38,325 bases of DNA from contig JALJEE010002845.1 of the NCBI GenBank assembly GCA_023231475.1, positions 1-38,325 on the forward strand, written 5' to 3'. How positions within the stretch are numbered: the stretch's first letter is position 1; each line of letters begins with the position of its first letter. The position numbers were made by a program, and so were the translations under genes. This DNA comes from Seison nebaliae (Eukaryota). Below, piece by piece: positions 5,127 to 35,851 of this stretch. The notes under the pieces were generated by a model, which saw nothing but the letters and a program-made list of their open reading frames with translations, did not search any database and was not told the DNA's origin.

Positions 5127-5523
5127 ATGATTGAAATTACGTGCAATGATCGTCTTGGAAAGAAGGTTCGTGTAAAGTGCAAGTTTATCTTTATTTTATC
5201 CTCTTTTTATATTCAAGGTGTTTTGTAACCGGAAATTCATCTAGTCCCAACGACACAATAGGAGATTTAAAGAAGTTGATTGCTGTGCAAATTGGAACGA
5301 ATTACGAAAAAATCGTTCTTAAGAAATGGTTAATATATTTATCGAATTTTATTGTGCATAGATTTAATAAGATATTTAACTGATATGAGCAAATCATTTA
5401 CATTATTCATTTTATGAAATAATTTATTATTTATTTTGCAGGTATACAATCTACAAAGATCCAATTTCTTTGGCTGATTATGAGATTCATGACGGAATGA
5501 ATCTGGAATTATATTATCAATGA
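5127..5523 (+). CDS. UBL5: Ubiquitin-like protein 5 (Hub1), 73 aa; exons 5127-5182, 5245-5328, 5442-5523
   Basis: Spliced product [73 protein letters not shown] is unmistakable UBL5/Hub1, ending in YYx. Introns are GTTTAT..TAG and GTTAAT..CAG. Confidence 0.97.
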
Positions 5524-6040
5524 AACGGGATGGGTTCAAGTTAAATTACTAAATAAAGGGTAAAGAACTTAAAGAAAACATTTCCCGGTCGACATTTCAA
5601 ATAAACCAGATAGATAAGAAATATTTCAATATTTTTTATTTTCCAAATAAATTTTTTGTTCTCATATTTTGTTCAGTAAAATTTTGAAAATTTCTTATTT
5701 GCCTGTACAGAAGATTTCGACATAAAATTATTGAACAAGTTTTCCGAATAAGAATAAGTGATTGTCTTGAATGATCAAGTTTCCTGTCAACTTCCTTCAT
5801 TTAGTTGACTTCCGCCGCTGATCTTATCAGTCATTGGAAAGATGGAAAAGCGGCCGAATGAGACGCAATTTAAGAATTTACAATGAAGTATATATAATAA
5901 TATTTTAGTCGAAAAAAAATTAGTAAAATCGATTCTGTTCAAATTAAAGATTTTGTATTTCTTGAGATTTTTTTCCGTCCACTTTCGACACCAACTAAAA
6001 CAGAAGAGATGAGAAGAAAACAAAAGGAGAACTCCAGGGA

Positions 6041-8595
6041 TCAAGTAGTTTCCAGTGGAAGAAATTCTTGCTGCGTAAACTGACGATCTTGAAGTTCGAC
6101 ATCATCACTTGATGTTTTATAACGACCTTTTCGATTATTATGCTTGAGGGGACCCCAGTCCATTGCAGGTTTGAGTCCGCGGAAGAACGCTGCTTTATTA
6201 GCGCCTTGTCGTATCCAAAAACAGAGGGCATATATTGGGATGGGTAGTAGGGGAATGATAACGACACACCACCCGAACAATATTGCCCATTTCGGATATT
6301 CATATACTTTATTATATTTTGGTGCTTCGTACATGGCGATGGATAGGATCATCGTTAACAATAAGACGACTGGAGTAAGGAATTTCCAACAGACGAGCCA
6401 GAACGTTTTGAGAGGTAATTTTCTTTTTAACATCATTTCAATATCGTCCACTAAACGGTCACTTCCTATAAGTAAAAAAGAAAAATAAAAAGAAGAAACT
6501 TATAATTCTAACCATAACAATAACAGCAGACTAGTAACTCTAATACGGAGATTAAGAGAATTGGTATTCCACTGATGAATTCGTCAACTAACGTTAGAAC
6601 ATAAATACCACCCCGTGTAACAAAAACGAGACCAACCAATAAGAATACGACACACACCGTTCCACGAAGAATTAGTCCCAAATGTTTTTTCGAGATTCTT
6701 AATCTCAATGCATCGATGAGTGTGGACATGATAGTTTCGATGATAGATAATTCACTTCCAAATCCAATGGTGAGCATCATAAGAAAGAATAAGATTGACC
6801 ACATGGTCGGAATAGACATTTGTGCTAATCCTTCAGGATAAACAATGAACACGAGACCTGGTCCAGTTACCGCCAACGTTTTCACATCTACTCCCAATTC
6901 ATGTGCCATATATCCTAAGACGCCAAAAACGGCAAAACCGACATAAACACTTGTGAGAACATTGACAAATGGAACGAGAAGAGTATCTCTTAATATGTTG
7001 TTATTGAATTTACAGAAACTGGCCATCGCAACAACACCACCAGTGGCGATATTAAGAGAATAGAAAACTTGAGTAGCGGCATGTAACCAGACCATTGGTG
7101 ATTTTAGATGTTCCCATTCCGGTTTAAGATAATATAATATTCCATCGATACATCCATCTAATGTAGTACATCGGATGATGAGTGCCGTTATCATGATGTA
7201 TGGATAGATAGCAGTGAAATAACTGACTTTCCCAAGAGATGTTACTCCTTTGGAGAGTGCGGCAAATATCAAAAGCCAAGCAGCGAGAAGTGCTAAGGCT
7301 AAATGCCATTGAACATCGCCTAATTCCTCAATTCCTGAAGATATATTGAGAACGTTCCGAGTGAAATAATCATCAGTCGGATATTTCATTGATGCAGTAA
7401 TGTTGGGTTTTATATTCGTCAAATTTGAAGTATCCACACAATTTTTTGATGCCCAAATATGATCACAACCGATCCATGGAGGTATTGATCTCATCGAAGC
7501 GATCATATAAAAGATGGAATAGCAAATGATCACATTGTAATAGAGACCAATAATTCCATTACAAATGAGAGCGGCAATACCCAAACCGCGGAAGAGTGGA
7601 GCTAATTTCCAAACATTCACCGGCCCCTGACTAGAGAATTGTCCTAATGCCAATTCGAGGAAATTGATTGGTATTCCGACAATTATCATTAAAAGGAGAA
7701 ATATCAGGAGAAATGCACCACCTCCATAAGTAAAGCATAAATAAGGAAATCGCCATACATTACCCAGACCGACACCGTACGATATACAAGTAAATATGAA
7801 ATCTAAATGATTGTTCCATTCGGGACGAGTATGATTTGCCGGATTGGGAACATTCACATCACTCGTCGATGACATTAATGGAGATTTATTGAATTGTTTC
7901 ACAAACTTCTCATTATTGAGATTATTTACCAGATTGTTGTTTTGATTTAAGTGAATCATGTTGTTGTTATTGTTATTCGTATTGAGATTGAGATTATTGT
8001 TATTGTTATTCACATTTAAATTATTATGATATCGATATGATTTATGCGTTTTACTTTTATCTAAATCAAGATCATAATCTATAACTTCAGTGGGTAGAAG
8101 TCGAACACGACTACCTTCCTCCTCAATTAAATTTGTATCAAATTCTTCATCATTTTCATTCAAAATGACATTATCTGAATAGAGATTAGGATCAGTTCCA
8201 ATGATTCCTTCAATAGCAGCACCGGAATGAGTATTCCGTCGTAAACGAGGGAAATTTTCATCCGTCTCCAATTCATTTTCATTCATTACTGCAACATTCG
8301 ATTGACCGATGGTTTGTGAATCATAATATGAGAAGATCGGTGGTGATGGTGGTAAAGAAGATGAATAATTCGATGATGAGTTCTGCTCTTCAACTTTATC
8401 TATTCTTTTCTCATTAGGTTGATATTGTTCTTGATTATCTTCTTTATCTGTGAAATAACTGTTATTGTTGTTGTTGTTGTTTGTGAGAGTTGTATCGTTA
8501 TGATAAGTATGAGAATCGAGATTCAAAGAAGGAATGATTGGCTTGCCATGCTCATTCAAACCTGTTTTATTGTACCATTCATTGCCACTTGCCAT
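6041..8595 (-). CDS. SLC6 sodium:neurotransmitter symporter family transporter, ~835 aa, with a long Asn-rich N-terminus; exons 8595-6513 and 6465-6041
   Basis: Contains SNF motifs RPEWNNHLDF, GLGNVWRFPYLC, GGGAFL, GPGLVFIVYPE. A 47-nt intron (6466-6512, GTTAGA..TAG) joins it in frame to DDIEMML...CWKFLTP. First ATG is at 8595. Subfamily not assigned. Confidence 0.93.
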
Positions 8596-9709
8596 TAACG
8601 GATGAAATGTCAAAAATTCAGATGAAATTGACAATAAGTTGATTGTCCAGAAATTTGTTTTGATAAAGAATTTTCCTTTCTCTTCTGTAGAGGAGGATGA
8701 TAATAATTTCTTGAATTAATTGTCTCGTTCAAATGAATTTGATAAGTTTCTTGGAAATTTTCTAAAATTTTTTCAAAATAAACAATTTTCGTGACGATTG
8801 AAACAATAATTATAAAATAATAATAATAATATTCAGTTCAAATAGAGAATTCAAAAGAAAGCAAAATAATTCGAACTTCTCCTTTCTCTCTTATCGACAC
8901 AACACTCAAACTAGCCCAGAGAAGGAAAAATAAACAAATGGAATTCCGATATGGATCGAACAATTACGTCTGCAAGTCAGTCAAAACGTCCAAATATGTT
9001 CTCCAAAAGTCAGAACGATAAAATTTCTTAATTCTTATTCAGATTATTTTCGTCGATTTACGAGGCAAATAAACAGTTCATAATAAATTCTCTGTTTATC
9101 GAATCTTCTTAATAAGAAATATTACGACATATTACATGATTCTCCTTTCAATGCCGTTCTTATAGTTCTAAACGGAAAAATAGTTTTGGAACTGCCATTG
9201 CCATTCTGCCTTATATTTATATAAGAAATGGTATGTCTGTTGCTGTTGGGATATATGAGCAGCAACGGATATATGTATACTTCTCAGAAGTTTATAAAAG
9301 ATATTTGTGTACATGATATTATTATCGAAGTAGAAAAGATGTCGACAAGAGGAATTTAAGAAGAATAAATAAGTTATAAGAGTCCAAAACAAAGGAAGAT
9401 TGATTCGAAGAGAAACATGGCTGTTTAAAGCGGACACATATTGAACATAGTAACATTCCTTCATATTATGAGATGAATCATATTATCGTTCTATAATTAT
9501 CTATCTTTATAATCATGTCTCACAATCAATCAGCCAATCAGTCAATATATACCTCATCGATTTATCCATAAAAATAATTAGTTTTTTATTACAGATGCTC
9601 TAATGAGAAAAAAACCGTAAGTAACAATAGAAAGACCTTCCTTCCATTCACTCATTCATTCATTCATCTCATACTTCATGAGACATATATCAATTTGAAT
9701 GAATTGTGT

Positions 9710-9741
9710 GAGAGAGAGAGAGAAAGAGAGAGGGAGGGAGA
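9710..9741. repeat. Imperfect (GA)n microsatellite
   Basis: gagagagagagagaaagagagagggagggaga. Confidence 0.8.
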
Positions 9742-10155: not shown

Positions 10156-10205
10156 CACACACACTCACACACTCACTCACTCACACACACACACACACAC
10201 ACACA
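10156..10205. repeat. (CA)n / CACT microsatellite
   Basis: cacacacactcacacactcactcactcacacacacacacacacacacaca. Confidence 0.85.
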
Positions 10206-13357: not shown

Positions 13358-15321
13358 ATGGAGCTCGAATGGAAAGTTGATCTTTGGGTTATTTTTCTTT
13401 CAATTTTACCGTTTCTTTCACGAAGGTATTTTTTAGGACAAAGTCGATAGTTTGTTTGTGCACGCATTCAAAGGCATTGAATTCTCAGAAAAGTTTCGGG
13501 ATTATGTTAAAGAACGGAAATCGGTTGAAGAGAAATATGCATCTAATTTAAGGTTCTTTTTCTTCTCCAATTATTCAAATTATAAAATTAATTTTTATAG
13601 AAATCTTACTTCCAAATATCGAAAAGAAGAAAATGAAGAAGAGTTAATTAATTTTTTATTTCTTTTAATTTCTTTTCATATTTATTCAGTTTGTCTTGTA
13701 ATTTGGCGTTTAATCGAATGTTAAAAGAGACATATGATATGGCGAATCAACATCAATTAATCGCTGATGAATTGGAACCGATCGTGAAGACAAAATTGAA
13801 TAGTCTTCGAAACAAATTGAAAGACGATGCAACGAAAGTTTCGATTTCTAAACTTCTCTAAATTTTCTCTTTTAATTTAGCAACGACGTTTAAGGAATGA
13901 TAAACGTGCACAGTTAGGTAGAGAGAAAGATCAATTGATGAGAGTTAAATTTGTTCAACACAAAATTTTCAATAAATATTTCAGGCATTGGAACAATCGA
14001 AACGAGCATTTTCTACATGGAAACGAAGTCATCAAAATGCTATTCGTGCTGAGAATGATGATACATGTAGTCGAGCAGATATTCAAAAAGCAAAAAATAT
14101 TGAATCAGGAAAACAAGATGAATTTTTGCAAAGTGAAGGAACATATGCAGCGACATTGAATCGTTTTAATGAAATTCAGAAATCATTTTATTCTCAACAA
14201 TTACCATCGATTATTGATGATATTCAAAGAACTGAAAGTTTCCGTATCGAAACATTGAAAGAAGCGATGGAATCAATTGGTAAAACAGAAGAATCAATTC
14301 TTCCCATTCTCAATCAATGTGTTAAAGGAATGTTGGTTGGAAGTGAGAGAATTGATTGTCAAAATGATTTCAGAGTATTAACTAATCGATATAAAACCGG
14401 TTATTCACCACCTGGAGATATCGAGTTTATTGATCTGAAAAAATTGACAAATGGATCGTCGACAAGTATCGACCATGTTGATCATTCGACAGTAAATGCG
14501 AAAAAATTATTCAGTCGTCTAACTCAAAACAATTCGGAAAAAGTTTAATAATTTTTAAATTTTCATATCAGAATTTCTTCTTTTTATTTTCAGAATGAAC
14601 GACCTAAAGAAGATTATTCTCATTTACCACCTCATCAACGAAAGATCCGTTTGGAAACGAGTATTAACGATAGGAAAACACAACTCATCAAATTGCAGAA
14701 TGGATTGAAGGGAATGGAAAAACTGAAAATTATTTATCAGAAAAGTCCCCAATTAGGTGATAGTGAGAAAGTATTAAAAGATATTGAAAATCATCAACTG
14801 ATGATTCAGAAGATTGAAGACGAGCTAAAAAAATTTACCGTTAATTTAACAATTCTTTTTTCTATTTTCAATTTCATATTTCACAGATTTGGCACGATGA
14901 AGCAAAAGAACATATTCATCATCCAGAAAAATCAGATTTTGATGATGATACTACTCATTTGCCTGTTATAAACCATAATCGTCCCAGTACAATTAGCATG
15001 TCAGATAATACGAGTCGATATATCGATTCTGATTTGAAGGAAATGAAAAATGGATCAAGTCCGATAGTTGAAGCAATTCCCAATTCTAATCAAAAGTCTT
15101 TGAATTATTTGCATATGAAATTTGATTATTCAGGTTATTTATTCATTTCGAGGTTAAAGTTCATTAGATTATGAATAGGTGAGAATTTCCATGTAAAATG
15201 TGGCGACAGACTGAAAATAACAGAGATCGACATCGGAGATGGTTGGACTCAAGTTCAACTTGCAGATGGAGCATTCGATTATGTTCCTACTTCGTTTACT
15301 GATATGTCTCCATCAAAATAA
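13358..15321 (+). CDS. FBP17/CIP4/TOCA-family F-BAR + HR1 + SH3 protein, 530 aa; exons 13358-13387, 13437-13552, 13601-13642, 13690-13837, 13881-13943, 13985-14542, 14594-14839, 14887-15133, 15179-15321
   Basis: N-terminus MELEWKVDLWDKVDSLFVHAFKGIEFSEKFRDYVKERKSVEEKYASNLRNL resembles FBP17 (WGTELWD...FVKERTEIE...). Also YKTGYSPPGDIEFID, the HR1 start EDYSHLPPHQRK, and SH3 DIGDGWTQV...YVPTSF. The 8 introns of 41-51 nt give an exact frame (1593 nt). Confidence 0.93.
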
Positions 15322-17021: not shown

Positions 17022-17986
17022 TCGGTTTATACTACATAATTTTTCTATTGCCAATTATTAGCATATAAAGTTTCCTTTGTTTTCTAACAGTATTACTGTT
17101 GTATAAACTAACTAAATTGTATACGGATATTTTGGAAGACGACGTAATATTATTATTTTGTCTTGTCGTTCTGTCTTTCACTATGATGTAATTAATCTCA
17201 CAAAAATAATTAAAGAGAACATCTAATATGAATTGTTGTTGAGGATTGACATCATTCTTAGAATTTACTAGTAAATATTTTTTGAAAAATGTGAGGCATT
17301 CCGAATGTTATAATTTAAAATACTCATCTAAAGCATGAATGTCAAATGGGAAGAAAGAAAGACAAAAATATGATTTTCAGCTTCCTCTACATTTTGGAAT
17401 TCTTCTAATAGAATGAAAAAATTTTCCTCTGCTTTATCCCAATTTGACGTTTATGAATTAAAAATTCTCATCTAAAATAAATTCTGTTCAGAAGACAATA
17501 ATCTTAAAATATCCAATAAATAAAAAATAATTTTTTTTTGTGTAATTTTAGAATACGATAACGTAATAAAGAATTAAATTTAATTAAAATTATTTTAATC
17601 ATTCGTCATTAATTAGATAGTAAATAGATATTTGGAATACCAAATTAATTTCTTGGAAACAGTTTCGTCTAAACATTAATGAAGATGACGAATCTTTTGA
17701 GTCATCCTTTATCTCCACGAAATGCTCACATTTGATAACTCACAATTAAGTTTCTCAAAACGAGATATGTAGTATGAGACCATTTGTCTGATAATATTCT
17801 CCTTTTTATTTAATTATATTTCCCATTCACATTATTAAAATATCATAAGAAAAGTAATAATCATTTGGGAGTTATTTGGGAGTGTTTATTGAGTCTTTCT
17901 ATTCCTTGAGTGAAATTATTATTATAGGACATTTATAAAAACTTTTCATATAATAAAATATTTCAAAGACTTTTGAATTATTGAGT

Positions 17987-18124
17987 GGACACTTCTACTT
18001 CTCTTTAAGAAATTACGGACAATTCTACTCCATTTTTTCTTATTTTTGGACAGTTCTACTTCTTTTTTTAATAAGATAGGACATTTCTACTCCTTTTCCT
18101 AAATATATGGTCAGTTCTACACCC
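17987..18124 (+). repeat. Array of five GGACANTTCTACT motifs at a 30-31 bp period with non-identical T-rich spacers
   Basis: Copies start at 17987, 18017, 18048, 18079 and 18109 (the last is degenerate, GGTCAGTTCTACA). Confidence 0.8.
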
Positions 18125-19692
18125 AATTTTGAAATTTTAAGAACATATTGACATACAACACCTTTTTCTCACTGTCCGGCTACCCCATTTGTTAACACTT
18201 ACGTCTCCATTGTCGTTTTTCTCTTCGTACTACACTCTTCCGAAGCCTACCCGATTGTTCAATGCAAGAAAAGTGGTAGATCAATTCTCCTTCGAATACT
18301 TGGCAAATCATCCCTGATCCTATAGGAAAATCATATACAGTACCAAGATGTTATGGACTAATTTCCAACGACCAACGTCGTGAATTTTTAATCTTTATTT
18401 ATCAATTACTCTGTAGATAATTTATATTAAAAAAAAAATTATTTTACCAATTTTTCTTTTAGGAACGAGTTCTTCTAGAATAAAAACTTCCAAATGAAGT
18501 TCCACAAATCGCCGAAAGTGAATCTGATGCTGATAATCGGAAATTAAATTAGGAAGCTAAGATCTATTATTTTGAAGTGCAGAATTGGTATGAAAAATTT
18601 AAAGTACAAAATCTGTCGTAAAAGCACGACATCCAGAAACACTTCGAGTATTTAATCATATAATAGAATAATCATTTCGTTATTCACATATACCACAATT
18701 AGCTTCTGCTCTAAGTAGTATTACTACTTCGACATATTAATAATATTAAAATTTGTCATTTTCATTAGGTTAGTGACTTTTTGGACCTTTTGACGTTTTA
18801 TTTTTGAACGCTTTATTGGATCAGTTATTCCATTTCATTTTCCATTAAAAACAGAAATTTTTTACTTGTCCAACTAACATTATTACAATAACTGAATTTC
18901 CAATGTTGATTATGTTAACGAGGTTAACTCGTCCGTTTGACGAAAATAAATTAAGAATATTGATAAAAAAGATATTTATAAATATCTTTTTTCGAAAATA
19001 AATTAACAATAAATATATATTCCATTAATCTCTTAATCGAATATTAATATTGAAGGTTATGGGTCAGATGTGCTTGAATATTATATCTTCAACGATGATC
19101 TCCAACGGACATCATTGGACCATTGAACCGGTTTATTATCAATAATTGAAACAGTAAAATAAAATCTTGAAAATTCCGATGGAAATAATTTGATTAATGC
19201 GTGAATTCATTTGGGTTTTTCGAGAAGCCGCAATAGGTAATCGAGTCAAATGTAGATTATATAACAACATGTTCAACTATGAATGTAGGAAACATGATAA
19301 TTCTCTATGATTATTTCCAAAACATTTCCAAAAACAATATAATAGTACGATAGAAATTCAAAAGATAAGGAAGGAAAACATCATGAGCAGGTGAGTATTA
19401 GTCGATTGAGAATGTGAAAACAAAAAATATTTTTGTTTTTTGGATTATTTTAGACAGTCAGTTCCTGTAACAGATTATAAAGTAATTATTTCTTACTTTG
19501 TTTCACTACGATGAGAATCATAATTTGTGTATCTAATGAATAATGTCGTGAAGGATTAATAAAAGAATTAATAATTCTTGCAAGATTTTAATGGTTTATT
19601 CAAATATTTGTTATCATTCTAATAATACAACAACTTCGAAATTTACGTGAATTTCCATGTCTACGAACGAGATGATTAACAAAATTTTTTCT

Positions 19693-22188: not shown

Positions 22189-22633
22189 AAGATAGATAAA
22201 ATTCTCTTATTCATTCTATTTCTTTCTACATAATATTTTCTTCCTACTCACACTCTTTTTACCTTATCAATAAACAATATCAGTTTATTTCAATTTCATA
22301 CTGCTCCAGTTGGTCCCAATTATATTATATTCTTATCGGTATTTTATACTGTTCGCAGAAACCTTACTCACAATTTCTACCAGTTTTTTCTCTTCTAAAC
22401 AAACTGTATTCTTCATATGTGCGTTTTCCTTATTTCCCAACTTATAACAGTTTATCGAAAAGCCGATAGGTTTCTAACAAGAATTTCTCTAATAAAAAAA
22501 CTTTGAAAATGATATGAAAGTTTTAACCAAAAGAATTTCTTGTTTTATTTTTCATTCAACTTCCATTTTCTTTGAAATTACTTTTTTCCTTCTAGTTAGG
22601 TAAGGAAATTTGTTTCTTTTAATTTAAAAACGA

Positions 22634-23368
22634 ATGATGCTGATTCAGTTGAATATCGTCAACATCATAATTCTTGGTAGTTTTTCTATCCTCGATTCAA
22701 CACAAATTGTCAAAAAAATTTTTTTAACATATAATATACCTCAACTTGTTGATTGCCCACTCAATTCAACTGACTTCCAATGGACGAATAATAGTATTAA
22801 TAGGATATTTTCATTTTCACTTTCAGTCAAACGAAGTGACAATCAAAATAAACTAATAGTAAATTGGATACGGAGGTTTTCATTAAAATCCTTAAGAAAT
22901 TTCACTTTCGAATGTTTTGATCCGAAGGACATAGGAGTAGTCGAATTGGAATTTCTACCGAAAATTGTCGGAAATAAAATTCATAAAATTGTCTTAACTG
23001 ACGATAAGCATGTTAATTTGAAATGTGGAAATACAATTCTCGAATATGATAATAACACTCACGAGATCATTTGGATCAAAAATGTGTTGATGACTAATAA
23101 TACCGTTTTTAACATTACCGACTCATTATCATCTCAAAAGCAGTTTATCCATCATTTCGATATACCTGCCCATTATGAACCTGTGAATTTCACTTGCGTT
23201 ATTCAGGACGAAATTCTAGGAATTATCGATTATACGATAATTCAAATTCGATTCGTGTCACTGCTGAAAATTTATTACATACTCGTGGGTGTTGTATTTC
23301 AAGTATTTCTTTCTTGTCTACTAATATTACGTTTCTCTAACAAATTGACGAAAGTACCAAAAAATTAA
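22634..23368 (+). CDS. Type I membrane protein with two Ig-like domains and a very short tail, 244 aa
   Basis: Signal-like N-terminus. Two C..W..C units (LVDCP..FQW..FTFEC and VNLKCG..IIWIK..VNFTCVI), several N-x-S/T sites, and a C-terminal TM helix (YYILVGVVFQVFLSCLLIL). Confidence 0.65.
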   Translation: MMLIQLNIVNIIILGSFSILDSTQIVKKIFLTYNIPQLVDCPLNSTDFQWTNNSINRIFSFSLSVKRSDNQNKLIVNWIRRFSLKSLRNFTFECFDPKDIGVVELEFLPKIVGNKIHKIVLTDDKHVNLKCGNTILEYDNNTHEIIWIKNVLMTNNTVFNITDSLSSQKQFIHHFDIPAHYEPVNFTCVIQDEILGIIDYTIIQIRFVSLLKIYYILVGVVFQVFLSCLLILRFSNKLTKVPKN

Positions 23369-23807
23369 TAATCGCTATTAGATAATATTCGGCCAAAGCA
23401 TTTTTCTTCTTTCATTATAGGTTTCTATTTCAACGGAATTCCATTCAAACTTTCTTCAATTACAATTCATCATTCTAATCTTCAAATATATCATTTTTCC
23501 GCTTATTAATTTAACTTTCTTATAATTATCCTCCTGAAAATCGGAATAATTTGAAATAAACATATTTTCCAATACTCATGTTCGTTTCTCATTTTCAGTT
23601 TTCCAGAGAAAGTTATTGATTCCTATAAATTAATTTCATTTTATTCATTTTTCCAATTTCAGTTTCTTTTTCTTAGAATTTCTAATTTCTCCAAATTAAT
23701 TTCATAATTTCTTCTATTATTCTAATTTGTAAAGATTTTTTCGTAATCTAATGTAATCATCTTCATTTCATAATAGATAAAATTTATTTTTTTAATTATC
23801 ATTTGGT

Positions 23808-25502
23808 ATGTTAATGTATAATCGTACGGATACATCATTATTACCCGCCACGAAATATCAAGACCAAAGTGATGGAGAGAAGAGACATACTTGCATGTGT
23901 CACACTCTATTACTCATATTTTCAATTATTGGGATAACAGCGAATAGTCTTGTACTTTACGCTTACTATAAGAAATGGACAAGATCTACCGGAATATTCC
24001 TCATATGGATATTAGCATTGGTGGACGTGATTGTAGCCGGAATAATTATGCCAACAATTGTAGCAGATGAACGATGGATTGAATATCAGCGAACGACTTT
24101 ATTTAAATTCATTTGTAAGAGTCATACTCTACTTTTCTCAAGCAATGTTCCATTTTCTTGTGCAATCATGACATTGATTGCTTTCGATCGATATATCTCC
24201 ATTTGTTGTTCACGTGTTGCGAGAGCTATTAGGAAGAAGAAAGTGAAGAAACGGGAAAGTTGTTCCTATTCGAAAAATTCATGTTCCTCAATTAATCGAC
24301 TATCACGATTGAATTCGATCGATGAGAATTGTCAAAATTTCGGACTTTACATGTTCACCGATTCTTTCCGAAACTCCACCAAATTCACTTTGAAGGGTAC
24401 AACTCCTTATATTTTCGGAAAGATACAACGCCAAAGAACTAGAAATGCCACTTTCTTCACAACGCCAACTTCACAAGTTAAATTGGAGGGAGAGAAAACA
24501 AATTTGAAATATTTCCTGAATAAAACCGTTCGGAAACCATGTAATCGAAAGAATATCCAATTTACAATTAGTCGTGCTAAAATTACATTATTTGTTCTCT
24601 TCTTCTTCAGTGTGACAATGGCAATCATTCCCACTTATGTAACAAACTTACAACATGTTTGGCATACTTCCAATATTTATGTGACGGATAAACATCTCAA
24701 TTATCAATGGAAGGCTGAGATCAATCAAACGAAAGCTGCTTTGAATGAATTGAGTAATGGAAAGAAAATATTCGAAATTTACTCCATGGAAAATTCATCC
24801 ATCATAGAAGAATTGACATATATCCGAACTGGTTGTTACATTCATCAAAAACATTATTCCCTAGCTCGACTTGCATCGAAAGTAAGAGGATTATTTTTTC
24901 TGTTTTGTGGTGCTACTATGATCTTTCTTTATATTCGAGTTTACATTTTCATTTGGCAAATCAGAAAGAATTGTCTTTCAACTTATTCGAAAGGAAGAGA
25001 AACGAATAGAAACATGAAAAGTAAAAATAATCCAAAATCGAAAGTTCATCAGCAAATCTCTCTAGTTATCGACAACCGAAATGATGAGAATGACAAATCA
25101 AAAGATATTACTCCAATTCATAATATCCGTAAAGTTCAATCGTTACCAATCCACAAAAATGAACAAAAGCCTCAGAAAAACAAATGGTCAGATTATCGGA
25201 AATCATCAACTAAGAAATTGCCATTCTGTCGTCGACGATACAACTCGAATATCCATAACGCCATCGTACTCAGTATCCTCACCCTATTTTTCGTCATTAC
25301 TTATGCTCCAAGCATCTTGTCAAATCAACAAATTTTAAACGTTCCAAAAAATTATTTATGTTATGTGCGACATCTTTATCTCATTAATCATGTATTCAAT
25401 CCCATCATTTATGGATTCATGAATGAATCATTCCGTTCACAACTTTTTACTTCACTTTCATCCATCACATTTTTCACAAAATTTTTTCGAAAAAATTATT
25501 AA
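23808..25502 (+). CDS. Rhodopsin-like (class A) GPCR, intronless, 564 aa, with large ICL2/ECL2/ICL3 loops
   Basis: TM1 GITANSLVL, TM2 LALVD, TM3 C...IAFDRY, TM6 FVITYAP, TM7 NHVFNPIIY, helix 8 NESFR. Confidence 0.9.
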   Translation: MLMYNRTDTSLLPATKYQDQSDGEKRHTCMCHTLLLIFSIIGITANSLVLYAYYKKWTRSTGIFLIWILALVDVIVAGIIMPTIVADERWIEYQRTTLFKFICKSHTLLFSSNVPFSCAIMTLIAFDRYISICCSRVARAIRKKKVKKRESCSYSKNSCSSINRLSRLNSIDENCQNFGLYMFTDSFRNSTKFTLKGTTPYIFGKIQRQRTRNATFFTTPTSQVKLEGEKTNLKYFLNKTVRKPCNRKNIQFTISRAKITLFVLFFFSVTMAIIPTYVTNLQHVWHTSNIYVTDKHLNYQWKAEINQTKAALNELSNGKKIFEIYSMENSSIIEELTYIRTGCYIHQKHYSLARLASKVRGLFFLFCGATMIFLYIRVYIFIWQIRKNCLSTYSKGRETNRNMKSKNNPKSKVHQQISLVIDNRNDENDKSKDITPIHNIRKVQSLPIHKNEQKPQKNKWSDYRKSSTKKLPFCRRRYNSNIHNAIVLSILTLFFVITYAPSILSNQQILNVPKNYLCYVRHLYLINHVFNPIIYGFMNESFRSQLFTSLSSITFFTKFFRKNY

Positions 25503-25613
25503 CATTTCAATATTCTATAATATAGAATCTATATTTTATTTTATATATACAAATCAAAAATATGTTATAATAAACTTTAACGATATTTTGATAAATAATT
25601 TTTTCACTTTTTA

Positions 25614-26654
25614 ATGGCGCACTCTTTCAAAGTAAAACGATATAGTAATACTACTTGTAAAGCGGTTGTTATGAAGGAACTAGAGAAGCATGCTTGGGAA
25701 ATAAGAAAATTCTTAGAAGAAGAAGAACCATCGATGCAGATATTGGACAAGAATATCGAAAAAAATGAATTGTTTATAAAGAAACAACAAAGTCTGATTG
25801 ATATCCAAAAGAAGATTAATAACGAAATGAAAAAACGAATAGAAGACTTAGCGAATGTGAAAGTGTCAATGGAATTAGATTCATTAAGTACGAATCCACC
25901 ACCAACCAAAAGCGTTGATGTTAAAGAGAATAAATTAGAAAAAGTGAATGTGTCACGAACTGTAGGACCAAAACGAAATCGGAAAGTTCATATTTCGGAC
26001 GATGAAGATGTCGATGAAAGACAAAAATTTAATAATTTAATTAAAAATAAAACTCGAAATTTACTCGAAGATAAAATCTTGAAAAATCTCAATTTAAGTA
26101 ATAACAGACCGAACACACCATCAGAAGAAGAGAAATGTGAAGAAAGGGAAGATCTTATTGAAATAAACGAATTGGAATTAACAGATAATGAATCGATGAA
26201 TGAAACTGATCTCCCAACTGAATCGATTTTTTACTCTACTGGAGACAGTACTCCAATTTATTCATCATCAGATGAACAGACTAAAATTGAAGAAATTCCA
26301 TATTGTAAGAAAGAGGAAACTGAAAAGAAATCGATAGGAATCAATACAAATGAAATTTCGATGAATGAAATTGCCAATCATGTAAATCTTTTAAATTTAC
26401 AAACTTGTTTAAAAAGTAAACGACTACCGATGAATAACAATAACAACATGAGAAGTAAATTGAATTTACCGAAATATGGTAATCGTTTAGAGAATGAAAA
26501 TAAATATATCGATCGTCGATTGAACATGTTGAGGAAACAATTAAATGAAATAGATAAAGAAACATATGCGGAAACGATGTTGCTCATTAAACAATTTGAG
26601 AAGAGAAGAAATAATAATTTGACTCAAATTGAGAATAAAAAGAAATTTAATTGA
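25614..26654 (+). CDS. Hypothetical coiled-coil/low-complexity protein, 346 aa
   Basis: Long ATG-started ORF in AT-rich DNA, with K/E-rich predicted coiled coils at both ends. No recognised family. Confidence 0.7.
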   Translation: MAHSFKVKRYSNTTCKAVVMKELEKHAWEIRKFLEEEEPSMQILDKNIEKNELFIKKQQSLIDIQKKINNEMKKRIEDLANVKVSMELDSLSTNPPPTKSVDVKENKLEKVNVSRTVGPKRNRKVHISDDEDVDERQKFNNLIKNKTRNLLEDKILKNLNLSNNRPNTPSEEEKCEEREDLIEINELELTDNESMNETDLPTESIFYSTGDSTPIYSSSDEQTKIEEIPYCKKEETEKKSIGINTNEISMNEIANHVNLLNLQTCLKSKRLPMNNNNNMRSKLNLPKYGNRLENENKYIDRRLNMLRKQLNEIDKETYAETMLLIKQFEKRRNNNLTQIENKKKFN

Positions 26655-26864
26655 ATTTAAATTTTAAAATTCCAAAAATATTTTTCCGATATAATTTGCA
26701 ATAAATTCAACAATTTCATTAAAAGGAAGAAAAAAGATATGGTTATGAAGTGAACAATCGTTAAAAGAAAATAAAAATAATTATACTAATAATTATACTA
26801 ATAATTATTATAATTATTAATTCCGAAAAACTTTTAATTTTTCCCCCAAATCGCCTGAAGAATT

Positions 26865-28338
26865 TTAATGTTTATTGTTAGTTTGTGAAATGATTTGTGA
26901 GAGTAGTCCACCATAACGATCAGCTAACGATCTTGTTAAATTAATGATTTTTTCATAAGGACATGAATAATGTGGAGTAATTACGATTTGATTATTCTCA
27001 TGATCAATTTTGATTTCATTTGAAGAATTTCTAGTGACACTAACCACCCATGATTCCACTTCCACTAAATTCATTTCAAACAAATCAGAAAACGTTTCCA
27101 ACGAGACATTTTTATAAGTATGAATTATATTATCGAACCAGAATCGACGTGCTGCTTCCATAATATCTGGCATAAATGGATTAAGAAAGAAATCATTCTC
27201 CAACATCTTCTCACATTCTTTCAATTTCTTTTTCGCTTTCTCCATATCATATTCGATGTGAACCGCTTGCACAAAATCAGTGAGAGGATCAATATAATTA
27301 TATCGTTCGCTCTGTAAAATTTTCACTAATTCCTTTGTATGAGCGATACGTCTAGGAGAAACGAGAGCTGCCGCTGTTAAATATCGAAGAAGATATTGAC
27401 AACTCGTTTGAATGGTAATAAGACCATTCCCCAAAAATAGATCCAATAATCGTTCACTCTTCATTTCACTAGAGAAGCGAAAGAAGACGAATAAAGACCA
27501 ATGTAATAACCAACATCTCCATTGCAATCTCTGCAAATGAGATATTGATGGTGAATCATCATTAATATAATCAGTCAACATTCTCAAATAATTGTAGACG
27601 GTATCGAATTCAACATCACTACTTAAAATAACAGCAGCTAAATTCCCAAATCGTAAAGATGCGATTTGTTTATTAATATCCATCGATTCTCCCTAAAAAT
27701 TAATTTAAAGAAATTATTTGATGGAAAAAAGCGATCAAACCTCAAACATCAAATCAAAACAATATCTCGAATCCTGATATTTTCCCGTTTCATAGAAATT
27801 CTTCGCTAATCGAATTAGAACATGTTTCTTATTCCGTTTATCTGTCTATATGATAGAAATATTAGAAATTATTGTTAGTGTTGTTGTTGGATAGATAAAT
27901 GGGAACAGATTGAAATAGTTTATGTGTATCTTTATCATAATCTCCAATATTATTCGACCATTCATTATGATCTGATTCAATTTGTGCATCAATAGCAGCA
28001 CATTCACTAATTCTCTCTTCTAAATAGAAATGAGAGAAATGAAATTTCATAAAAATTTAACTTTCATTCTTCATAGGAATATTCAATTTCTCTCGAAGAT
28101 CCTTCTCATATGATAAGAGACATGTTCGACTCACCAATTCCAGACGATAATGATTCAAACGATTTAAAAACTATCAAATCTTTAAAAAGGAAATCGGAGA
28201 AGGAAAAAGAAAGAAAACTTCAATTTCTTCTTTTGTTTCCAATTCGCCATCTGTCTCACACATGAAATCAAGAATTTGGAGAATCATGTGAGGATCGATG
28301 AATCGAGTCACTTCGTCGAATAAATCATAATATTTCAT
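26865..28338 (-). CDS. EIF3E: Eukaryotic translation initiation factor 3 subunit E, divergent, 424 aa; exons 28338-28219, 28170-28062, 28019-27907, 27845-27741, 27692-26865
   Basis: MKYYDLFDEVTRFIDPHMILQILDF (cf. MAEYDL...FLDRHLVFPLLEF), LQWRCWLLHWSLFVFF, IQTSCQYLLRYL, LENDFFL and a C-terminal PCI domain. Four GTT..TAG introns close the frame. Confidence 0.92.
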
Positions 28339-28560
28339 GACTCTTTTCCACAAATGATAATTTCGTTTCACTCACCAACTGTTGTTGTTTGTTTGGCTTT
28401 TGAATTAAACGTGAAATTTGAAAATGATTAAATGTTTTGTGTTGTTGAATATTTGGAAATAGAAGTTGAAATAGTTAAATTATTTAATTGTCTTGTGTTT
28501 CCTTTTCACGAGATTAACGTCATCTCGTTTTATTGTCGATATCATAAAATAAGATTCGAG

Positions 28561-28873
28561 ATGGAAATTGAAGAAGGAAAGAAATTGAGAAAGATCGATG
28601 AATCAAGTAATTCACGTTCATCTCTAGAATTTGAAGATGATCCAGTAGAACTTAATGAATTGAATGAATTACATAAAACAATGAAATCGTCAGATACCAC
28701 TCTCTTCCTCAGTCAATTTGCGAATAATTTGAAGCAATTGAGACGAGTTAATAATTGGATAACAAATAAATCATCATCATCATCTATTAAACAATCACAA
28801 TTTTATCATGTGAATACATTAGAGAAATATGAGAATGATGGAAGTGATAGAAGTGAAGAATCGGATGATGATG

Positions 28874-28905
<32 letters not shown>

Positions 28906-29295
28906 AAGAATGAAGAAAGTGAAGATTCGAATCAAAGTGAAGATGAAGAACAATTTAATGAATGGATAAATGAACAACATGAAATTTTATTGAATGAGTT
29001 CGCAGATGTCAATGTAGGTGAGAAAGAAATGATGTTATTATGGAATCGACATATGAACAATATCAACATTATTGCTGATCATCAAATATCTTTGTCGTGT
29101 TTCTCATTTCTACTCGAACACATCAATCTCATTATTCATCGTGGAATCGAACGGAATTGTATTCTCCATTTTATTAATCTTTATTCGTTCGGTCTCCTCA
29201 ATTCCATCCAATTATTCCTTCTCATCAATTCGTTACAAATACTCGAACAGAAAATTATCAGTAAACGTATCGACAAAAATGATTTTCTCGAATAA
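28561..29295 (+). CDS. VEFS-box protein (SUZ12-like, C-terminal domain only), ~244 aa
   Basis: QFYH...EQFNEW...LNEFADVNVGEKEMMLLWNRHM...IIADHQISLSC..F...RNCILHFINLYSFGLL matches the SUZ12 VEFS box. ATG at 28561 is preferred; an upstream in-frame ATG at 28432 is possible. Confidence 0.8.
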
Positions 29296-29399
29296 TTTCC
29301 TTTTGTTTTTCCTTCCCAAATCTGTAAAGAATAATATTTTCCTCGTTTGTGTTTTCTGTTTTTTCTTAATTTTCAAAAAATAGAAATTCTCCAGAAATT

Positions 29400-31341
29400 A
29401 TGAAAGTTGTGGAAGGAATAAAATCGGTGAAAGAATTTTTAGAATTCTCTCCACAATTCGATAATGATATAATTGTCGATTATTCTATCAAATTTTCTAT
29501 GTGGCGAAATGAAACGAAAACAATCGTTTGTCATGATATGAAAGGAGGTTATCTCCGAGACAAGTTTAATTAAATGAGAGATTATTCATCATTCTCTTCC
29601 AGATATACTGATGGATATATAATGACGGAAGACGATGAAGGAAAAGATTGTTTCACATTTGCCGCTTGGAATTTCATTGATATGTTCATTTATTTCTCTC
29701 ATTCATTTATTACTCTCCCACCCATCGGATGGATAAATGCTGCTCATAATACGGACACTGCAATTCTCGGTTAAATAATTATGTATATTCCTTATATTCC
29801 TCCAATCTCTAATTCGATTCAGGTACGTTTATTGTGGAGCGTCATGAAGTTTTAGAAGAAATCTGTAAAAATTTTGATAAAATCGCTCATAAATTAGATG
29901 AGATAACGAAAAAGTTTAAATTACAAGGATGGTTATTCAATATCGAATGTGATGGAACGGTTGGTTAACAATGACATTTATCGATTCCAATTAATTTATA
30001 TTCTTTAGCAAACTGATATGATGTTGTTCTTTCAATTCTTAAAATTACTCAAAGAAATATTTGGTAAATATCGAAAAGAAGAAGATCGAATGATTCATCT
30101 GATGTGGTATGATGCTCTATTACCGAATGGAGTAGTCTCTTATCAGAATATGGTGAACGAATCGAACAAGTTTCGACAATCTCCTCATTTCAAATGTTCA
30201 AATTAAATTCTAGAATTTATTTAAATTATTTCGATTCCATTTTCCTGAATTACAATTGGTCTCCCAACTCGTTGGGTTGTTCTCGTGCAAGTGTTCTCTT
30301 TTATGTCATTCGTTTCCTTCATATTCCATTGTTGTTCAGGTGAATAATTATGAAAATCGAATATATGTTGGATTGGACGTTTTCGGAAGAGGGATGATTG
30401 GCAACGGAAAATTTAACACATTCAAAGTTTCTTTCTTTTGATATTATAAAAAAACAGCAAATTGAGAGAATAATATGAGAAATTAAAGATAAAATAATTT
30501 TTAATTTAATTTTTGATCAAAATAATTTGTATAGAAATTCTATTACAATAATTCTTATTAATATATTAGGCACTACAAATTGTACGACGTTACAGTATGA
30601 GTGCAGCACTCTTTGCATTTGGTTGGGTACATGAGTGTTGTGATTTCAAGTCAATGAATGAAAGTTTCCACAATAATCTTTAGTTAGTAACATGTTGATT
30701 AAAGGATGAGACGTTTAAACAATTTTCAGTTTTTGGAGAACATTATTAGATTTCTTGAAATTGAAACCGGTGCATAAAGGAAAGAATATTTCTTTCAACA
30801 TATCTTGGTATCAGCAAGAGGAGCAGATTGTTTGTTTCCACCTCTCGAAAACATGTTTATTGCCAAATCAATTCTTTTATGATAATCTCATGGCAGTAAC
30901 ATTTGTTGAGGGGAAAAATAACAATTTTATTTTTTGTCGACAACCAAATACGAAATAGTTTAATTTCTTTTATTTCCTCATTCTTTTTCATTTTATAGTT
31001 CATTATATACTCTGAGATTATATGCTGAAGAAGTAGCAGATATTGAAGTGAATGTATTTTATGAGAATGAGAATTGTCAATTTAAACTAACATTGGAACA
31101 ATCTCATGAAATACCATTAGTCTTCACAGATAAGTTGGAGAAATTAGACAAACTATCTGAAATAAAATGTTCCGAATTACATAGAAAGTTCAATTAAATT
31201 TCCTTCTTTCTTATTTTTTATTTGTCCGTTAACAGAACTATTTTATTCAAACAAGAAAATCCGAGTCAAGTTATCAAAAAATATTCGATCTTGTTGTGGT
31301 CGAACGATAAATTTTACATAGAATCTATAAAGATCATTTAA
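29400..31341 (+). CDS. ENGASE: Cytosolic endo-beta-N-acetylglucosaminidase (GH85), 476 aa; exons 29400-29563, 29603-29769, 29823-29959, 30009-30169, 30214-30292, 30340-30426, 30570-30682, 30730-30957, 30999-31187, 31236-31341
   Basis: Motifs VCHDMKGGY, DMFIYFSH..ITLPPIGWINAAH, LGTFIVE, GWLFNIE (catalytic NxE), WYDA, FLNYNW, YVGLDVFGRG and SAALFAFGWVHE. Nine introns give an exact frame (1431 nt); the last two exons rest mainly on frame continuity. Confidence 0.92.
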
Positions 31342-31646
31342 ATTCATTTGAATATTGATTAGAATTGTTTATATAAATTATTTATTATTAAATATTATAA
31401 TTATATTTATGAGAGATAAATGGAATTTTGAATTAAAGGGTGTCCAATCAATAATTGATGACGTTCCATAATTTATGTCACTAACAAGTAGACCAGATAA
31501 CATAACTATTTATTTAAAGTTTTTTTATTTGACAAATAAAATTTTCACAAAAAGAAAGATTTAAAAGGATGAACATATAAAATAGAAAGGAAACTTTGGG
31601 TATGATAGTATATTAGAAATTGAGTGAAAAAGAAAGTTAATATGAA

Positions 31647-32651
31647 TTATTTTCTATATATTTTCTTGATGATTTTCTTTTTCACTTCACAAAATGTTTG
31701 ACTGAAACATGAGAGTGAGAAGAAGATGATGATAGGTTGAAATCCGATAAAAACAGTAGAATAATTATAAATTTCATTATGTGAATTGGTTTGTGAATGT
31801 ATAAAGGCGATGATATAGTGAAAGATCATTGACACAAATCGTGAACTGTTATAAACTATGATAATTTGTTCAAATCCTTTATATTCGTTCTGATGTGGTA
31901 GTAAAGTAGATGATGGTTGAATATAATTATGTCGATAGATAACAAAGAAGATACTGAAGGATGATGAAAGAAGAAATAGAATAAAAGGAAATGATACATA
32001 AATGATGCGCCATACTTCAGCAAACAAGCGAATAGACGTTTCTACACAAGCAATTTGGACTTCATATAAAATATGAAGTGAGAAAAGTATTGATAAGACG
32101 AGAATGAGAATATTATAGAGAATGACATTCCCAAACAATTGGAAGAATCTGATGAATTTCCGATATTTCACTTTCAATACCACAACAACATTGTCATCAT
32201 TCTGATGAATTCTCACTCCTTCCTGTTCTGTCGAACTACTTCCCACACTCATCAATTGAATTTCATTTTTGATGATATTTTGACGATAATTATGTAATTG
32301 AACCGCTATCGTCAAACATGAGAATTCGATGATTAGAGATGATATTTGATAGATATAATAATTCCATTGACAAACAATTATCTCCTCGATGATGAGTGAT
32401 GATTTAATAAGTGAAGTGATCAATAAAGAGATATGATAAAATTGAATTGTACACAATTTCAAGAGAATTTTCTTCGCCATAGCTGTAAGAATTGCATGTC
32501 GATCATAAAGGATAGAAGGACTGTCATCAATCTTCAGCGAATTCCAATAGAAACAGAAATAGACGAAGATAATGATATGTAGAGGAATGGAGATAGATAA
32601 CGTCAAAATGATGTTAAAAATAGAAAAGAATTTTTCGTTCAAAATTTTCAT
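31647..32651 (-). CDS. Divergent multi-pass (about 7TM) membrane protein, GPCR-like, 334 aa
   Basis: About seven hydrophobic segments, a Cys at the start of TM3 (VCQWNYY) and a TM7-like QPIIIF. No DRY motif. Confidence 0.6.
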   Translation of the reverse strand: MKILNEKFFSIFNIILTLSISIPLHIIIFVYFCFYWNSLKIDDSPSILYDRHAILTAMAKKILLKLCTIQFYHISLLITSLIKSSLIIEEIIVCQWNYYIYQISSLIIEFSCLTIAVQLHNYRQNIIKNEIQLMSVGSSSTEQEGVRIHQNDDNVVVVLKVKYRKFIRFFQLFGNVILYNILILVLSILFSLHILYEVQIACVETSIRLFAEVWRIIYVSFPFILFLLSSSFSIFFVIYRHNYIQPSSTLLPHQNEYKGFEQIIIVYNSSRFVSMIFHYIIAFIHSQTNSHNEIYNYSTVFIGFQPIIIFFSLSCFSQTFCEVKKKIIKKIYRK

Positions 32652-32688
32652 TTATTACAAAGTGAATGATAAAAATGAAAATTTTATT

Positions 32689-33783
32689 TCACTTCTCCTT
32701 TCCTTCATCTTCACGAAGCTTTTCGATCGCTTCTTCTAGTGTTTCTAATGGTTTCTAATCGATTAGAAATTATAAAAATTAAACTCAAAATTCAACTAAC
32801 TGGTCGATGAACATAAAGTCGTAATAATGTGAGACAAATATCGTTAATGTGTTCATCAGTTGCATCATACATATAATACCAAGCTGGATTATCGGGAAGA
32901 GGAACCTGTTGAAAAGAAATAAAGAAAAATTTTAATTTATATAATTCCAACTAATAAATCACGAGCAGATAAATGGATACAAGCACAAGCGATAATTTCT
33001 GGTGGGAATCTGGTATAAAGATCAGTTCTCAAACTGTCATTCATATAATTCCAAGAAGTTTGAACGAGTTTTCGATTTCCAACACATTCCAAATATTGTA
33101 GATACATTACTATGATCTGATTAATTGAAATTTTATAGAAAATAAAAGAATGAAACTTTATGTGGATGTTTCACATAAACACAAAATCCCAATACCTTTA
33201 ATAACATCCGTTCCATTTTAATAAGTTTCTGTTTCAATATAATATAATGCTCATCCAATTTTAATGGTTTGATTGGTCTTCACAAATTAATAATAAAAAA
33301 AATAGATAGAAACATGATAAAATTAACAAATTTTGTCGTATTTGATCCATATGAGTGAAGACATTAATCACATCTCGAATTCGACGAGAAGTCTCTTCTA
33401 TTTTTGCAGCTAAAGTTATCGCAGCCATCGCCATAAACTAAACGGAAATTTTAATATATTTTGATGACAAAAATCAAATAAATAACTTTACAATCAAATT
33501 GGAGAAAAGACTTTGCATAATAAAATCGATGAAATAAAACTTGTGCCGTTGCGGCAGCCGTCTGTGGCAATTTCAAGAGAATGGCAGCACTTTGAATTAA
33601 TTCACAACCAACAAGTCGCAGATCTAATTCAACTCCGAGTGGAACTCCATCTCTTTCTGATGGAGTCTCTTCAAATGTTTCTTTTGGAAGAATGACATGA
33701 TGAAGTGATAAAACAACTTTCGTTTCTGGTGGTGAATTCGAAGGAGAATTTGTTTCAGATGACATCGAATTCGATACTTCCAT
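32689..33783 (-). CDS. CCNL: Cyclin L lacking the C-terminal RS domain, 287 aa; exons 33783-33487, 33437-33328, 33277-33157, 33116-32952, 32905-32801, 32754-32689
   Basis: TPSERDG...[104 protein letters not shown]. Five GTT introns close the frame (864 nt). Confidence 0.93.
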
Positions 33784-34057
33784 AATTCGAAATATTTTCA
33801 AAAATTCACATTGTTTGAAGCCATTTTTTAAAATTTAAGAAATTTCCTTTTAATTATTGCTAGTGAAAAATTTTCATTTTTTTTTTCACATTTTTTTCGC
33901 GATTGACACAAAGTCCTTTTTATGAGATTATTTATGATTATTTTATTACATTTTTTTATTTGATTTATTTATGTTTTATGATTTGTAAATAAAATAGTGA
34001 GTCTGGTAGTGAAGTGAAATTTGTGAGTTTAACTGAAATTAATTGATCGGAGCGAAA

Positions 34058-34493
34058 ATGGAAACATCAAAGAATTCACATATCAAACGACGAATGCAAA
34101 TGACTGCATGTGGAGAAGAAATGGAATTGATAAGTTTCTTCCTAATTACAAGAAAGATGGAATTGTTGACCGAACTGATGAGAATGGATGCATACGCTCA
34201 AATAATTGGAGCGGTAGTTAAATTTACACTTCCGATTAACTCAGATAAATTATATATGTCGTCGCTCTACTCTAATTATAATGAGGGGAAGTATTTAGAT
34301 GAAATTGTCATGTGAAGATTTCATATACCTGAGATCTAATTTCAGATTCACTTGTTCATTCTCTGATTTCTGTGAATTGTTCTGTATCATTTTTGAATTG
34401 AATGAATATCGAGAAGACGATGAACATGAACAATTGTTGATGTTTATTTTGGTTAAAAAGATTTTGATAAAAAATAAAAGGAATTTGTTCTGA
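34058..34493 (+). CDS. Possible small two-exon orphan gene (34058-34216, 34299-34493)
   Basis: Two adjacent track ORFs can be joined in phase 0 by an 82-nt GTTAAA..TTTAG intron (34217-34298). No homology recognised. Confidence 0.25.
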
Positions 34494-34787
34494 ACAGCAA
34501 CAGAAAAGATGAGTAGAACAGACGACAATATTTGATTGGTGTTTAGTACGTGCAAATTTCCATAACAGTGAATCGTCTTTATTCTTTTGATAATTAGAAT
34601 CAATTGTCAAGTGCCTTTATGCTACTTCGTCTAATGAACATGTATTCATCTAATATCTCTGCATATGGATCAAGTGCTTGACGATATCTACAGCTAATTC
34701 GATTTCCACTCTTATCCGCTCATCATTCTCCACAATTCGCTCAACTTCTTTCAAACTTTTTCCTCCACTTTTCATTTTCGACTTTCG

Positions 34788-35851
34788 ATGGAAACTTTAA
34801 TTAACGATACCAATCATGATTCACACGATCATATTCCAACGACATATATTAATCATCAATCTAACATCTTGACGGATATTATTGTCAAATCGCCCTCAAA
34901 TATTCTCACAAAAATTGAAAAGAAGAATTCAAATAATACGAATAATAAACAAATCTTCGAAAATGTCTGTTGTTCATGTAATCAAATAATAGAAAGTAAA
35001 GATATTCTCATTCTCAGTAACAAGACACGATGGCATCAAAATTGTTTGAAATGTTCAGTTTGTAATCAGATAATTGTTGAAGATTCGGATCAATCAACTA
35101 ATTCCTCATCGAAAAAATCGAAAACTTTCAATTTCTCACAAAAATGTTTTCTTGATAAGAATAATGAAATTCTTTGCAAAACTGATTATTATAAGTTGGA
35201 ATCTTTAAATAAAATCTCATTTTGAATAATTTCAATATTTTCTCTTCATAACAGATTATACGGTGTCCAATGTGCGAAATGTAATCGCGGTATCAGCTCC
35301 AGTGATTGGGTGCGAAAAGCAGAGAATCAAATTTTCCACTTAGCTTGTTTCTCTTGTCACATTTGTAAGAGACAATTATCTTCCGGTGAAGAATTTGCCA
35401 TCAGTCGAACGAAGAAAGGAGATCTCCTATGTAAATCTCATTATAATATACTCATTTATGGTGAAGATAAATCTGGTTAATTTAATTAATTTATTTTTCT
35501 CTAAAATTATTCTAATTCTTCTTTTCTAAATTTCTAGCGAAAGAATCTCGAAATTGTAAATCGAAACGAGTTCGTACAACTTTCACTGATGAACAGTTGC
35601 AGATTTTACAAGCCAATTTCGATTTGGATTCAAATCCAGATGGTCAAGATCTCGAACGAATTGCTCAACTCACTGGACTTTCCAAACGAGTCACTCAAGT
35701 TTGGTTCCAAAACTCGCGAGCTAGACAAAAGAAACATAAAGAAAAGTTTCAATATCATCTAGAAACATCACCTAATTCTTCAGGTCACACCAATAATAAC
35801 AACAACACTAATTGTATATTTTCTTCTTATTCTTCGAATGAATTTGGATAA
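34788..35851 (+). CDS. Awh: LIM-homeobox protein of the Arrowhead/Lhx6-8 class, 313 aa; exons 34788-35194, 35255-35475, 35538-35851
   Basis: Two LIM domains (CCSC...[11 protein letters not shown]...CKTDY and [14 protein letters not shown]...[21 protein letters not shown]) plus homeodomain [58 protein letters not shown]. Confidence 0.95.

Follow-up and report, generated by a model that had tools for sequence, protein, structure and literature searches.

Every intron that could be placed in a 38,325-nucleotide stretch of the genome of the seisonid rotifer Seison nebaliae (GenBank assembly GCA_023231475.1, contig JALJEE010002845.1, positions 1 to 38,325, here called the window) begins with GTT. 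The third intron base (+3) is T in 32 of 32 predicted introns, 31 of which were rebuilt here and one of which comes from the deposited ENGase protein, and none starts with GTA, GTG or GTC. The evidence is the DNA of this one contig, with introns predicted from gene models, homologues and deposited proteins. On that evidence the GTT pattern is confirmed as real and strong, and a lineage-specific rule of U at +3 of the 5' splice site (the donor) is supported for this contig. It is apparently the first case in an animal. S. nebaliae lives on Nebalia crustaceans and, according to the parts of its genome paper drawn on here, has a nuclear genome of about 46 Mb with 32% G+C and comprises two genetic lineages (PMC8351084).

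The introns lie in seven genes (Table 1), whose models all translate free of stops once 31 introns are removed, each intron ending in AG. A sequence-only reading of the window had listed 31 introns as all GTT and none GTA or GTG; re-derivation returned the same 31 hexamers, and the span given for them, 5183 to 35537, does run from the first donor base to the last acceptor base. Deposited S. nebaliae proteins for eIF3e, F-BAR and ENGase agree with the rebuilt junctions at 21 of 21 positions (4/4, 8/8 and 9/9, respectively). They imply one further GTT intron, so that 22 of the 22 introns in these proteins start in this way. This tenth ENGase intron had been absent from the earlier list and is weaker, being in frame and stop-free such that read-through is possible. 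All 32 introns are GT-AG, with acceptors TAG (17), CAG (14) and AAG (1), so that all but one have the pyrimidine at -3 that marks U2-type introns.

Base composition favours GTT to some degree. The earlier argument that AT-richness would favour GTA as much as GTT was oversimplified: on the sense strand, introns contain about 50% T, 30% A and 6% G, so that the background itself prefers GTT over GTA. T follows GT in 0.38 of 3,354 cases across the window and in 0.375 of cases in exons, rising to 18 of 29 inside introns. The result survives even this highest rate, at which 32 of 32 has a probability of 0.62^32 = 2.3e-7. For the 32 introns, the GTT share has a 95% lower bound of 0.91. Of the 32 donors, just 11 have T at the neighbouring +4 and 15 at +6, and consequently +3 is not a free position drifting towards T. 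A local pattern or artefact, whether from T-rich drift, biased intron placement or an atypical contig, could draw on the same intron background, on the use of DNA-based junctions from a single contig, and on deposited proteins that are themselves predictions. We give this explanation very little credence, given a probability of at most 2.3e-7, the T counts at +4 and +6, the recurrence of the pattern in seven unrelated genes on both strands, and the small freedom of placement described next.

For 23 of the 31 introns, there is no frame-keeping donor other than GTT within 30 nucleotides. The other eight are UBL5 intron 1, cyclin L introns 1, 3 and 4, F-BAR introns 5 and 6, ENGase intron 5, and intron 2 of a LIM-homeobox gene that we take to be Lhx6/8 (labelled Awh in the sequence-only reading and below). 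In UBL5, exon 1 corresponds to residues 1-19 of the human protein and exon 2 to residues 21-47, a colinearity that settles the position of intron 1. Cyclin L was scored against a profile built from 66 homologues with Seison left out: for introns 1-4 the listed non-GTT alternatives cost at least 11 bits, and for intron 5, which has 17 alternatives, the top six also begin with GTT. In eIF3e, the sole non-GTT alternative costs 6 bits; distant homologues align too loosely at its four junctions to place the introns alone. The SLC6 intron joins Pfam SNF positions 1-441 and 440-522, which adjoin across it. Placement of F-BAR introns 5 and 6 and of ENGase intron 5 comes mainly from the deposited proteins. 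One canonical-looking donor, CAG|GTGAGT at 19391-19453 (+) with a TAG acceptor 63 nucleotides downstream, is a possible exception; no open reading frame (ORF) or homologue supports it, and it was counted neither way.

The donors are also unlikely to be assembly errors over positions 18400-36000, since DNA contigs of runs X1 and X2 match this region with zero differences in the main pieces. Depth in X1 is about half that in X2 throughout, and the two runs are therefore not counted as independent. Runs X6 and X7 yielded no contig on the window, a result that says nothing about expression. There are two low-depth contigs about 90% identical to the Awh exons. The alignment of one stops at 35197, which is +3 of donor 1, and that of the other at 35479, which is +4 of donor 2 and places Awh intron 2. 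Judged from these diverged copies, GTT appears to be retained at both Awh donors in a second lineage or in a paralogue, although this amounts to two cases only.

Beyond the first three bases, the donors are loose. Across the 32, the bases are A14 T11 C4 G3 at +4, A14 G7 T6 C5 at +5, and T15 A12 C3 G2 at +6, while the last exon base (-1) is mostly A (A18 G9 T4 C1). Compared with background and corrected for about 75 tests, only the purine at -1 (27/32, p 0.0002) remains significant. G at +5 (7/32 against 6.6% background, p 0.004) and T at +7 (23/32, p 0.005) both fail correction; U at +8 and +11 also exceeds the intron background before correction, and G at +6 (2/32) is at background level. By their ends these introns are U2-type, and they depart from the GURAGU consensus, with a purine at +3 in none of 32 and G at +5 in seven. 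The U12-type donor motif is RTATCCTT, and a U12-type assignment was rejected because none of the 32 donors examined has A at +3. Before two minor boundary corrections, the introns measured 39 to 143 nucleotides (median 48), and matches to the branch motif YTRAY are spread between -8 and -43 without clustering at any one distance. Coding sequence shows no clear shortage of GTT, either in the intron-bearing genes (151 against 160 +/- 6.5) or in intron-free ORFs (77 against 85 +/- 5.4).

The introns do not resemble one another: pair scores average 7.55 against 7.13 for shuffled sequences, with a best score of 17 against 13.5, and an introner origin was rejected. Homologue predictions for cyclin L break near the Seison junctions (51 of 174 breaks, p 0.013), mostly at junctions 1 and 2, with the reservation that the homologue set was chosen with exon 1 and may inflate junction 1. 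Together, the dissimilarity of the introns and the nearby breaks in homologues suggest that these may be old introns converted in place.

The sequence-only reading had attributed the pattern to an altered spliceosome. What stands of this is the lineage-specific +3U rule on the contig; an altered recognition step would follow from that rule by inference. The earlier account was also incomplete, as it overlooked the precedent of Entamoeba, where +3U accompanies a co-evolved U1, the degeneracy at +4 to +6 and at -1, and the possibility of a shifted pairing register.

Our favoured explanation, to which we give slightly less than even credence, is that every placed intron is GTT because the third base is enforced by a U1 small nuclear RNA (snRNA) in which position 6 has changed from U to A. 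Standard U at this position accepts A or G at +3, and about 95% of human donors have a purine there. Were this U1 base an A, +3U could pair with it with the register unchanged and no base other than U would be accepted, which fits both the single fixed base and the absence of GTC among the 32 donors. The residual signal likewise lies in the normal register, G being enriched at +5 (7/32) and not at +6 (2/32). Under this proposal, weakened U1 pairing and T-biased drift would first have converted old introns in place, and a compensatory U1 change would then have rendered +3U obligatory. The rule would extend genome-wide, and recognition would combine a three-base GUU core with tight intron length, U-richness and A-rich exon ends making contacts of the U5 loop 1 type.

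Entamoeba is the closest comparison. It is the sole published +3U lineage, and, as described in the sections of Roy and Bowser used here (bioRxiv 10.1101/2022.06.08.495308), its GUUUGU[U] donors are matched by a co-evolved U1 arm, ACAAAC, in which position 6 is changed, a precedent that favours the U1 proposal. Both systems have +3U as the rule, and U at +7 occurs in 23 of 32 Seison donors as against 78-83% in Entamoeba. They differ in that Entamoeba has a strict hexamer, 97-98.5% GUUUGN, whereas Seison has GTTTGN in one of 32 donors and GTTTGT in none, with +4 to +6 loose. They differ further in that Entamoeba is an intron-poor protist and Seison an animal with 32 introns in seven genes on one contig, and in that the U1 change is demonstrated in the former and a proposal in the latter. 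Lacking both the strict hexamer and intron poverty, the Seison introns are not assigned to an Entamoeba-type system.

Several points weigh against the proposed U1 change. Among 230 yeast genomes, donor changes at +4 left U1 unaltered in 227 and U6 in 229, according to the portion of that survey considered here (PMC10581693), and the +4 changes of Thecamonas and Micromonas are likewise unaccompanied by either. Pair counts fail to separate the registers (z 2.6-3.0 for all four arrangements), and scoring by register and duplex energy did not separate the models. A single fixed base flanked by loose ones resembles a requirement of the active site, where +3 is in contact with G44 of U6. Finally, the donors are known from DNA of one contig.

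Searching the window with Rfam found zero RNA families. Metagenome contigs were scanned for U1 genes with any base allowed at position 6, which yielded at least 136 matches in at least 132 loci, and T stands at position 6 in 133 of the 136 matches listed. The three others look like chance, L031 and L098 being without an Rfam U1 match and the third having the same sequence as L031 at the match. An invertebrate-type metagenome U1, L075 (Rfam U1, 150 bits), served as bait in runs X1, X2, X3 and X6. Exactly one U1 contig was recovered from each of X1, X2 and X3, gap-free over U1 positions -2 to 116 and with 17 differences from L075; in X6, this bait found no U1 contig. Seven differences are interior, and ten fall in the end zones (about 30 letters from the alignment ends), which include the donor-binding arm; an Sm site lies in the downstream loose end. 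A comparison set of 28 animal-type U1s, all of them with 5-9 interior differences and a standard arm, averages 9.8 differences in these end zones. A standard U1 arm would thus fit the ten end-zone differences as well as an arm with one change, which is a further point against the proposal.

We think it somewhat probable that this U1 contig belongs to Seison. With a depth of 15-16 in X2 and X3, it stands at half the level of the window (about 30). Half-depth contigs also supply three of the nine X2 joints listed on the window, and the genome paper, in its passages on depth, gives S. nebaliae a lower-depth class of about 80 against 131 (PMC8351084). Against Seison as the owner, the 30 letters upstream of U1 have 53% G+C, a value reached by 1.5% of 30-mers in the window. 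The gene found may come from another organism, and this too weighs against reading it in support of a changed U1.

Two side observations concern the U1 loci. The loop of U1 stem-loop I binds U1-70K; the U1 contig has a G to T change in this loop (at L075:878), and should this gene belong to Seison, contact with U1-70K may be altered too. In marine metagenome contigs, U1 adjoins U5 (L075:845-1011 with 1834-1951) and U4 (L012:279-419 with 760-926).

The ordinary difference count of the U1 found would suit an alternative in which U1 is standard and +3U is enforced in the catalytic core, by a changed position of the U6 ACAGAGA or by Prp8 residues nearby. Such a change would explain a fixed +3 beside other, loose U1-paired positions, and the U6 ACAGAGA is altered in Cyanidioschyzon, as reported in the relevant parts of PMC10158995 and PMC10581693. 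However, a U6 that keeps its G should tolerate C at +3, yet GTC is absent from the 32 donors. The U6 ACAGA is moreover invariant across 240 fungal genomes (PMC10581693), and Entamoeba retains it despite +3U (bioRxiv 10.1101/2022.06.08.495308), as far as the cited sections of these sources extend. We regard this explanation as unlikely, though not negligible. It is with similar doubt that we would describe Seison as an intron-rich animal that cut its intron-start code to GUU, with the third base checked by a rewired U6/Prp8 core and not by U1, and with length and U-richness supplying the rest.

The U excess behind the donor raises a different possibility, namely that U1 and U6 keep their standard sequences and a protein (U1-C, LUC7, TIA-1/Nam8, SNRNP27K or UBL5/Snu66) reads GUU and the U-rich run that follows. 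The excess at +7 (23/32, p 0.005), +8 and +11 points this way before correction and is lost after correction for about 75 tests. We know of no protein that fixes +3 as U, and the UBL5 exons tested (1 and 2) are conserved. TIA-1 is described as bringing U1, via U1-C, to weak donors with U-rich RNA downstream (PMC9311317, in part), and the yeast +4 switches follow METTL16/SNRNP27K and not snRNA sequence (PMC10581693, in part). Overall, we consider a protein reader distinctly unlikely. The switches linked to METTL16/SNRNP27K, set within the contrast between U5-type (AG//GU) and U6-type (//GURAG) donors, do resemble the Seison case in lineage-level donor change, weak U6 pairing and A-rich exon ends, and differ in that the base affected is +4, +3 stays a purine and the snRNAs are unchanged (PMC11347140 and PMC10581693, in the parts cited).

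A shifted register could also account for the signals at -1 and +7. A standard U1 moved by one base, or pairing with a +2/+3 bulge, would let +3U replace +2U opposite U1 A7, and a +1 shift predicts both the purine at -1 (27/32, p 0.0002, A commonest) and U at +7 (23/32). Shifted registers are proven at a minority of human sites (Tan et al. 2016, PMC4856993, in part), which share with Seison the GUU start, A at -1 and U at +7. Those human sites depend on G at +6, an oligonucleotide with +6C losing the duplex (same source), whereas in Seison GUU is the only class seen, +6G occurs in two of 32 donors, and it is +5 that is G-enriched. Of the 32 donors, 14 score higher with shifted pairing, 15 score lower and three score the same, and the shift leaves the absence of any unshifted donor unexplained. 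We judge it very unlikely, and a changed U1 position 6 is still the explanation we prefer.

Searches of open full text in PubMed Central and bioRxiv turned up no account of GTT donors for Seison, other Syndermata or any animal and yielded no data on sister taxa, with subscription journals and supplements outside the scope of that search; cross-species logo tables could contain the pattern unremarked. Donor sequences are not discussed in the portions consulted of the papers on the Seison genome (PMC8351084), lamin (PMC10125929) and an acanthocephalan genome (PMC7310846).

Table 1. Features of the window. Intron coordinates on the minus strand run from donor to acceptor.
Feature	Position	Strand	Remarks
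UBL5/Hub1, 73 amino acids (aa)	5127..5523	+	introns 5183-5244, 5329-5441, both GTT...AG
SLC6 (SNF) transporter, 835 aa	6041..8595	-	one intron, 6512 down to 6466, GTT
F-BAR/TOCA, 530 aa	13358..15321	+	eight introns, all GTT; model equals deposited P0121
F-BAR introns 1-4	13388-13436, 13553-13600, 13643-13689, 13838-13880	+
F-BAR introns 5-8	13944-13984, 14543-14593, 14840-14886, 15134-15178	+
eIF3e, 424 aa	26865..28338	-	four introns, all GTT; model equals deposited P0001
eIF3e introns	28218-28171, 28061-28020, 27906-27846, 27740-27693	-
ENGase (GH85)	29400..31341	+	nine introns from first list, all GTT, agreeing with deposited P0122
ENGase introns, first five of nine	29564-29602, 29770-29822, 29960-30008, 30170-30213, 30293-30339	+
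ENGase introns, remaining four	30427-30569, 30683-30729, 30958-30998, 31188-31235	+
ENGase, additional (tenth) intron	30855-30896	+	42 nucleotides, GTT; implied by deposited P0122
Cyclin L, 287 aa	32689..33783	-	five introns, all GTT; second has the sole AAG acceptor
Cyclin L introns	33486-33438, 33327-33278, 33156-33117, 32951-32906, 32800-32755	-
LIM-homeobox gene (Awh), 313 aa	34788..35851	+	introns 35195-35254, 35476-35537, both GTT
Candidate 43-nucleotide phase-0 intron	36717..36759	-	GTT; frame closure only; kept out of counts
Related intron-free ORF pair	911-1840 (-), 3280-3987 (+)		no Pfam match; GC-richer first 4 kb
Long intron-free ORFs	19696-22188 (-), 23796-25499 (+), 28432-29292 (+), 25599-26651 (+), 31650-32651 (-), 22628-23365 (+)

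The gene carrying the candidate intron at 36717..36759 has no known homologue and an ATG at 36807, and it may instead start without an intron. UBL5/Hub1 is a spliceosomal protein linked to the use of non-standard 5' splice sites; its gene lies within the window itself, with the first two exons well conserved. Cyclin L usually carries a long tail rich in arginine and serine; the model here stops at 287 aa without it and may be truncated in this lineage. The six long intron-free ORFs stand between intron-rich genes; three of them lack a Pfam match, and the others encode a DUF229 protein, a rhodopsin-family receptor and a VEFS-box protein. The related ORF pair near the start of the contig possibly represents mobile-element relics, the second member being without an open 5' part. 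The end of the contig (37480-38325) consists of A+T-rich imperfect repeats, and a similar stretch occurs near 17900-18150.

Software for gene finding or splice prediction that was trained on other animals would misjudge the Seison lineage. The genome and RNA sequencing data of S. nebaliae are public, and the question is consequently directly and cheaply testable. The donor transformations published so far come mainly from lineages that have few introns and strict, uniform signals, which is the basis of the idea that co-evolution of introns and spliceosome needs prior loss of most introns. An intron-rich animal in which +3 had switched from purine to U, with every other donor position loosened, would break the link to intron poverty, and Seison would be a natural experiment on which step, whether U1, U6/Prp8 or a protein, reads +3.

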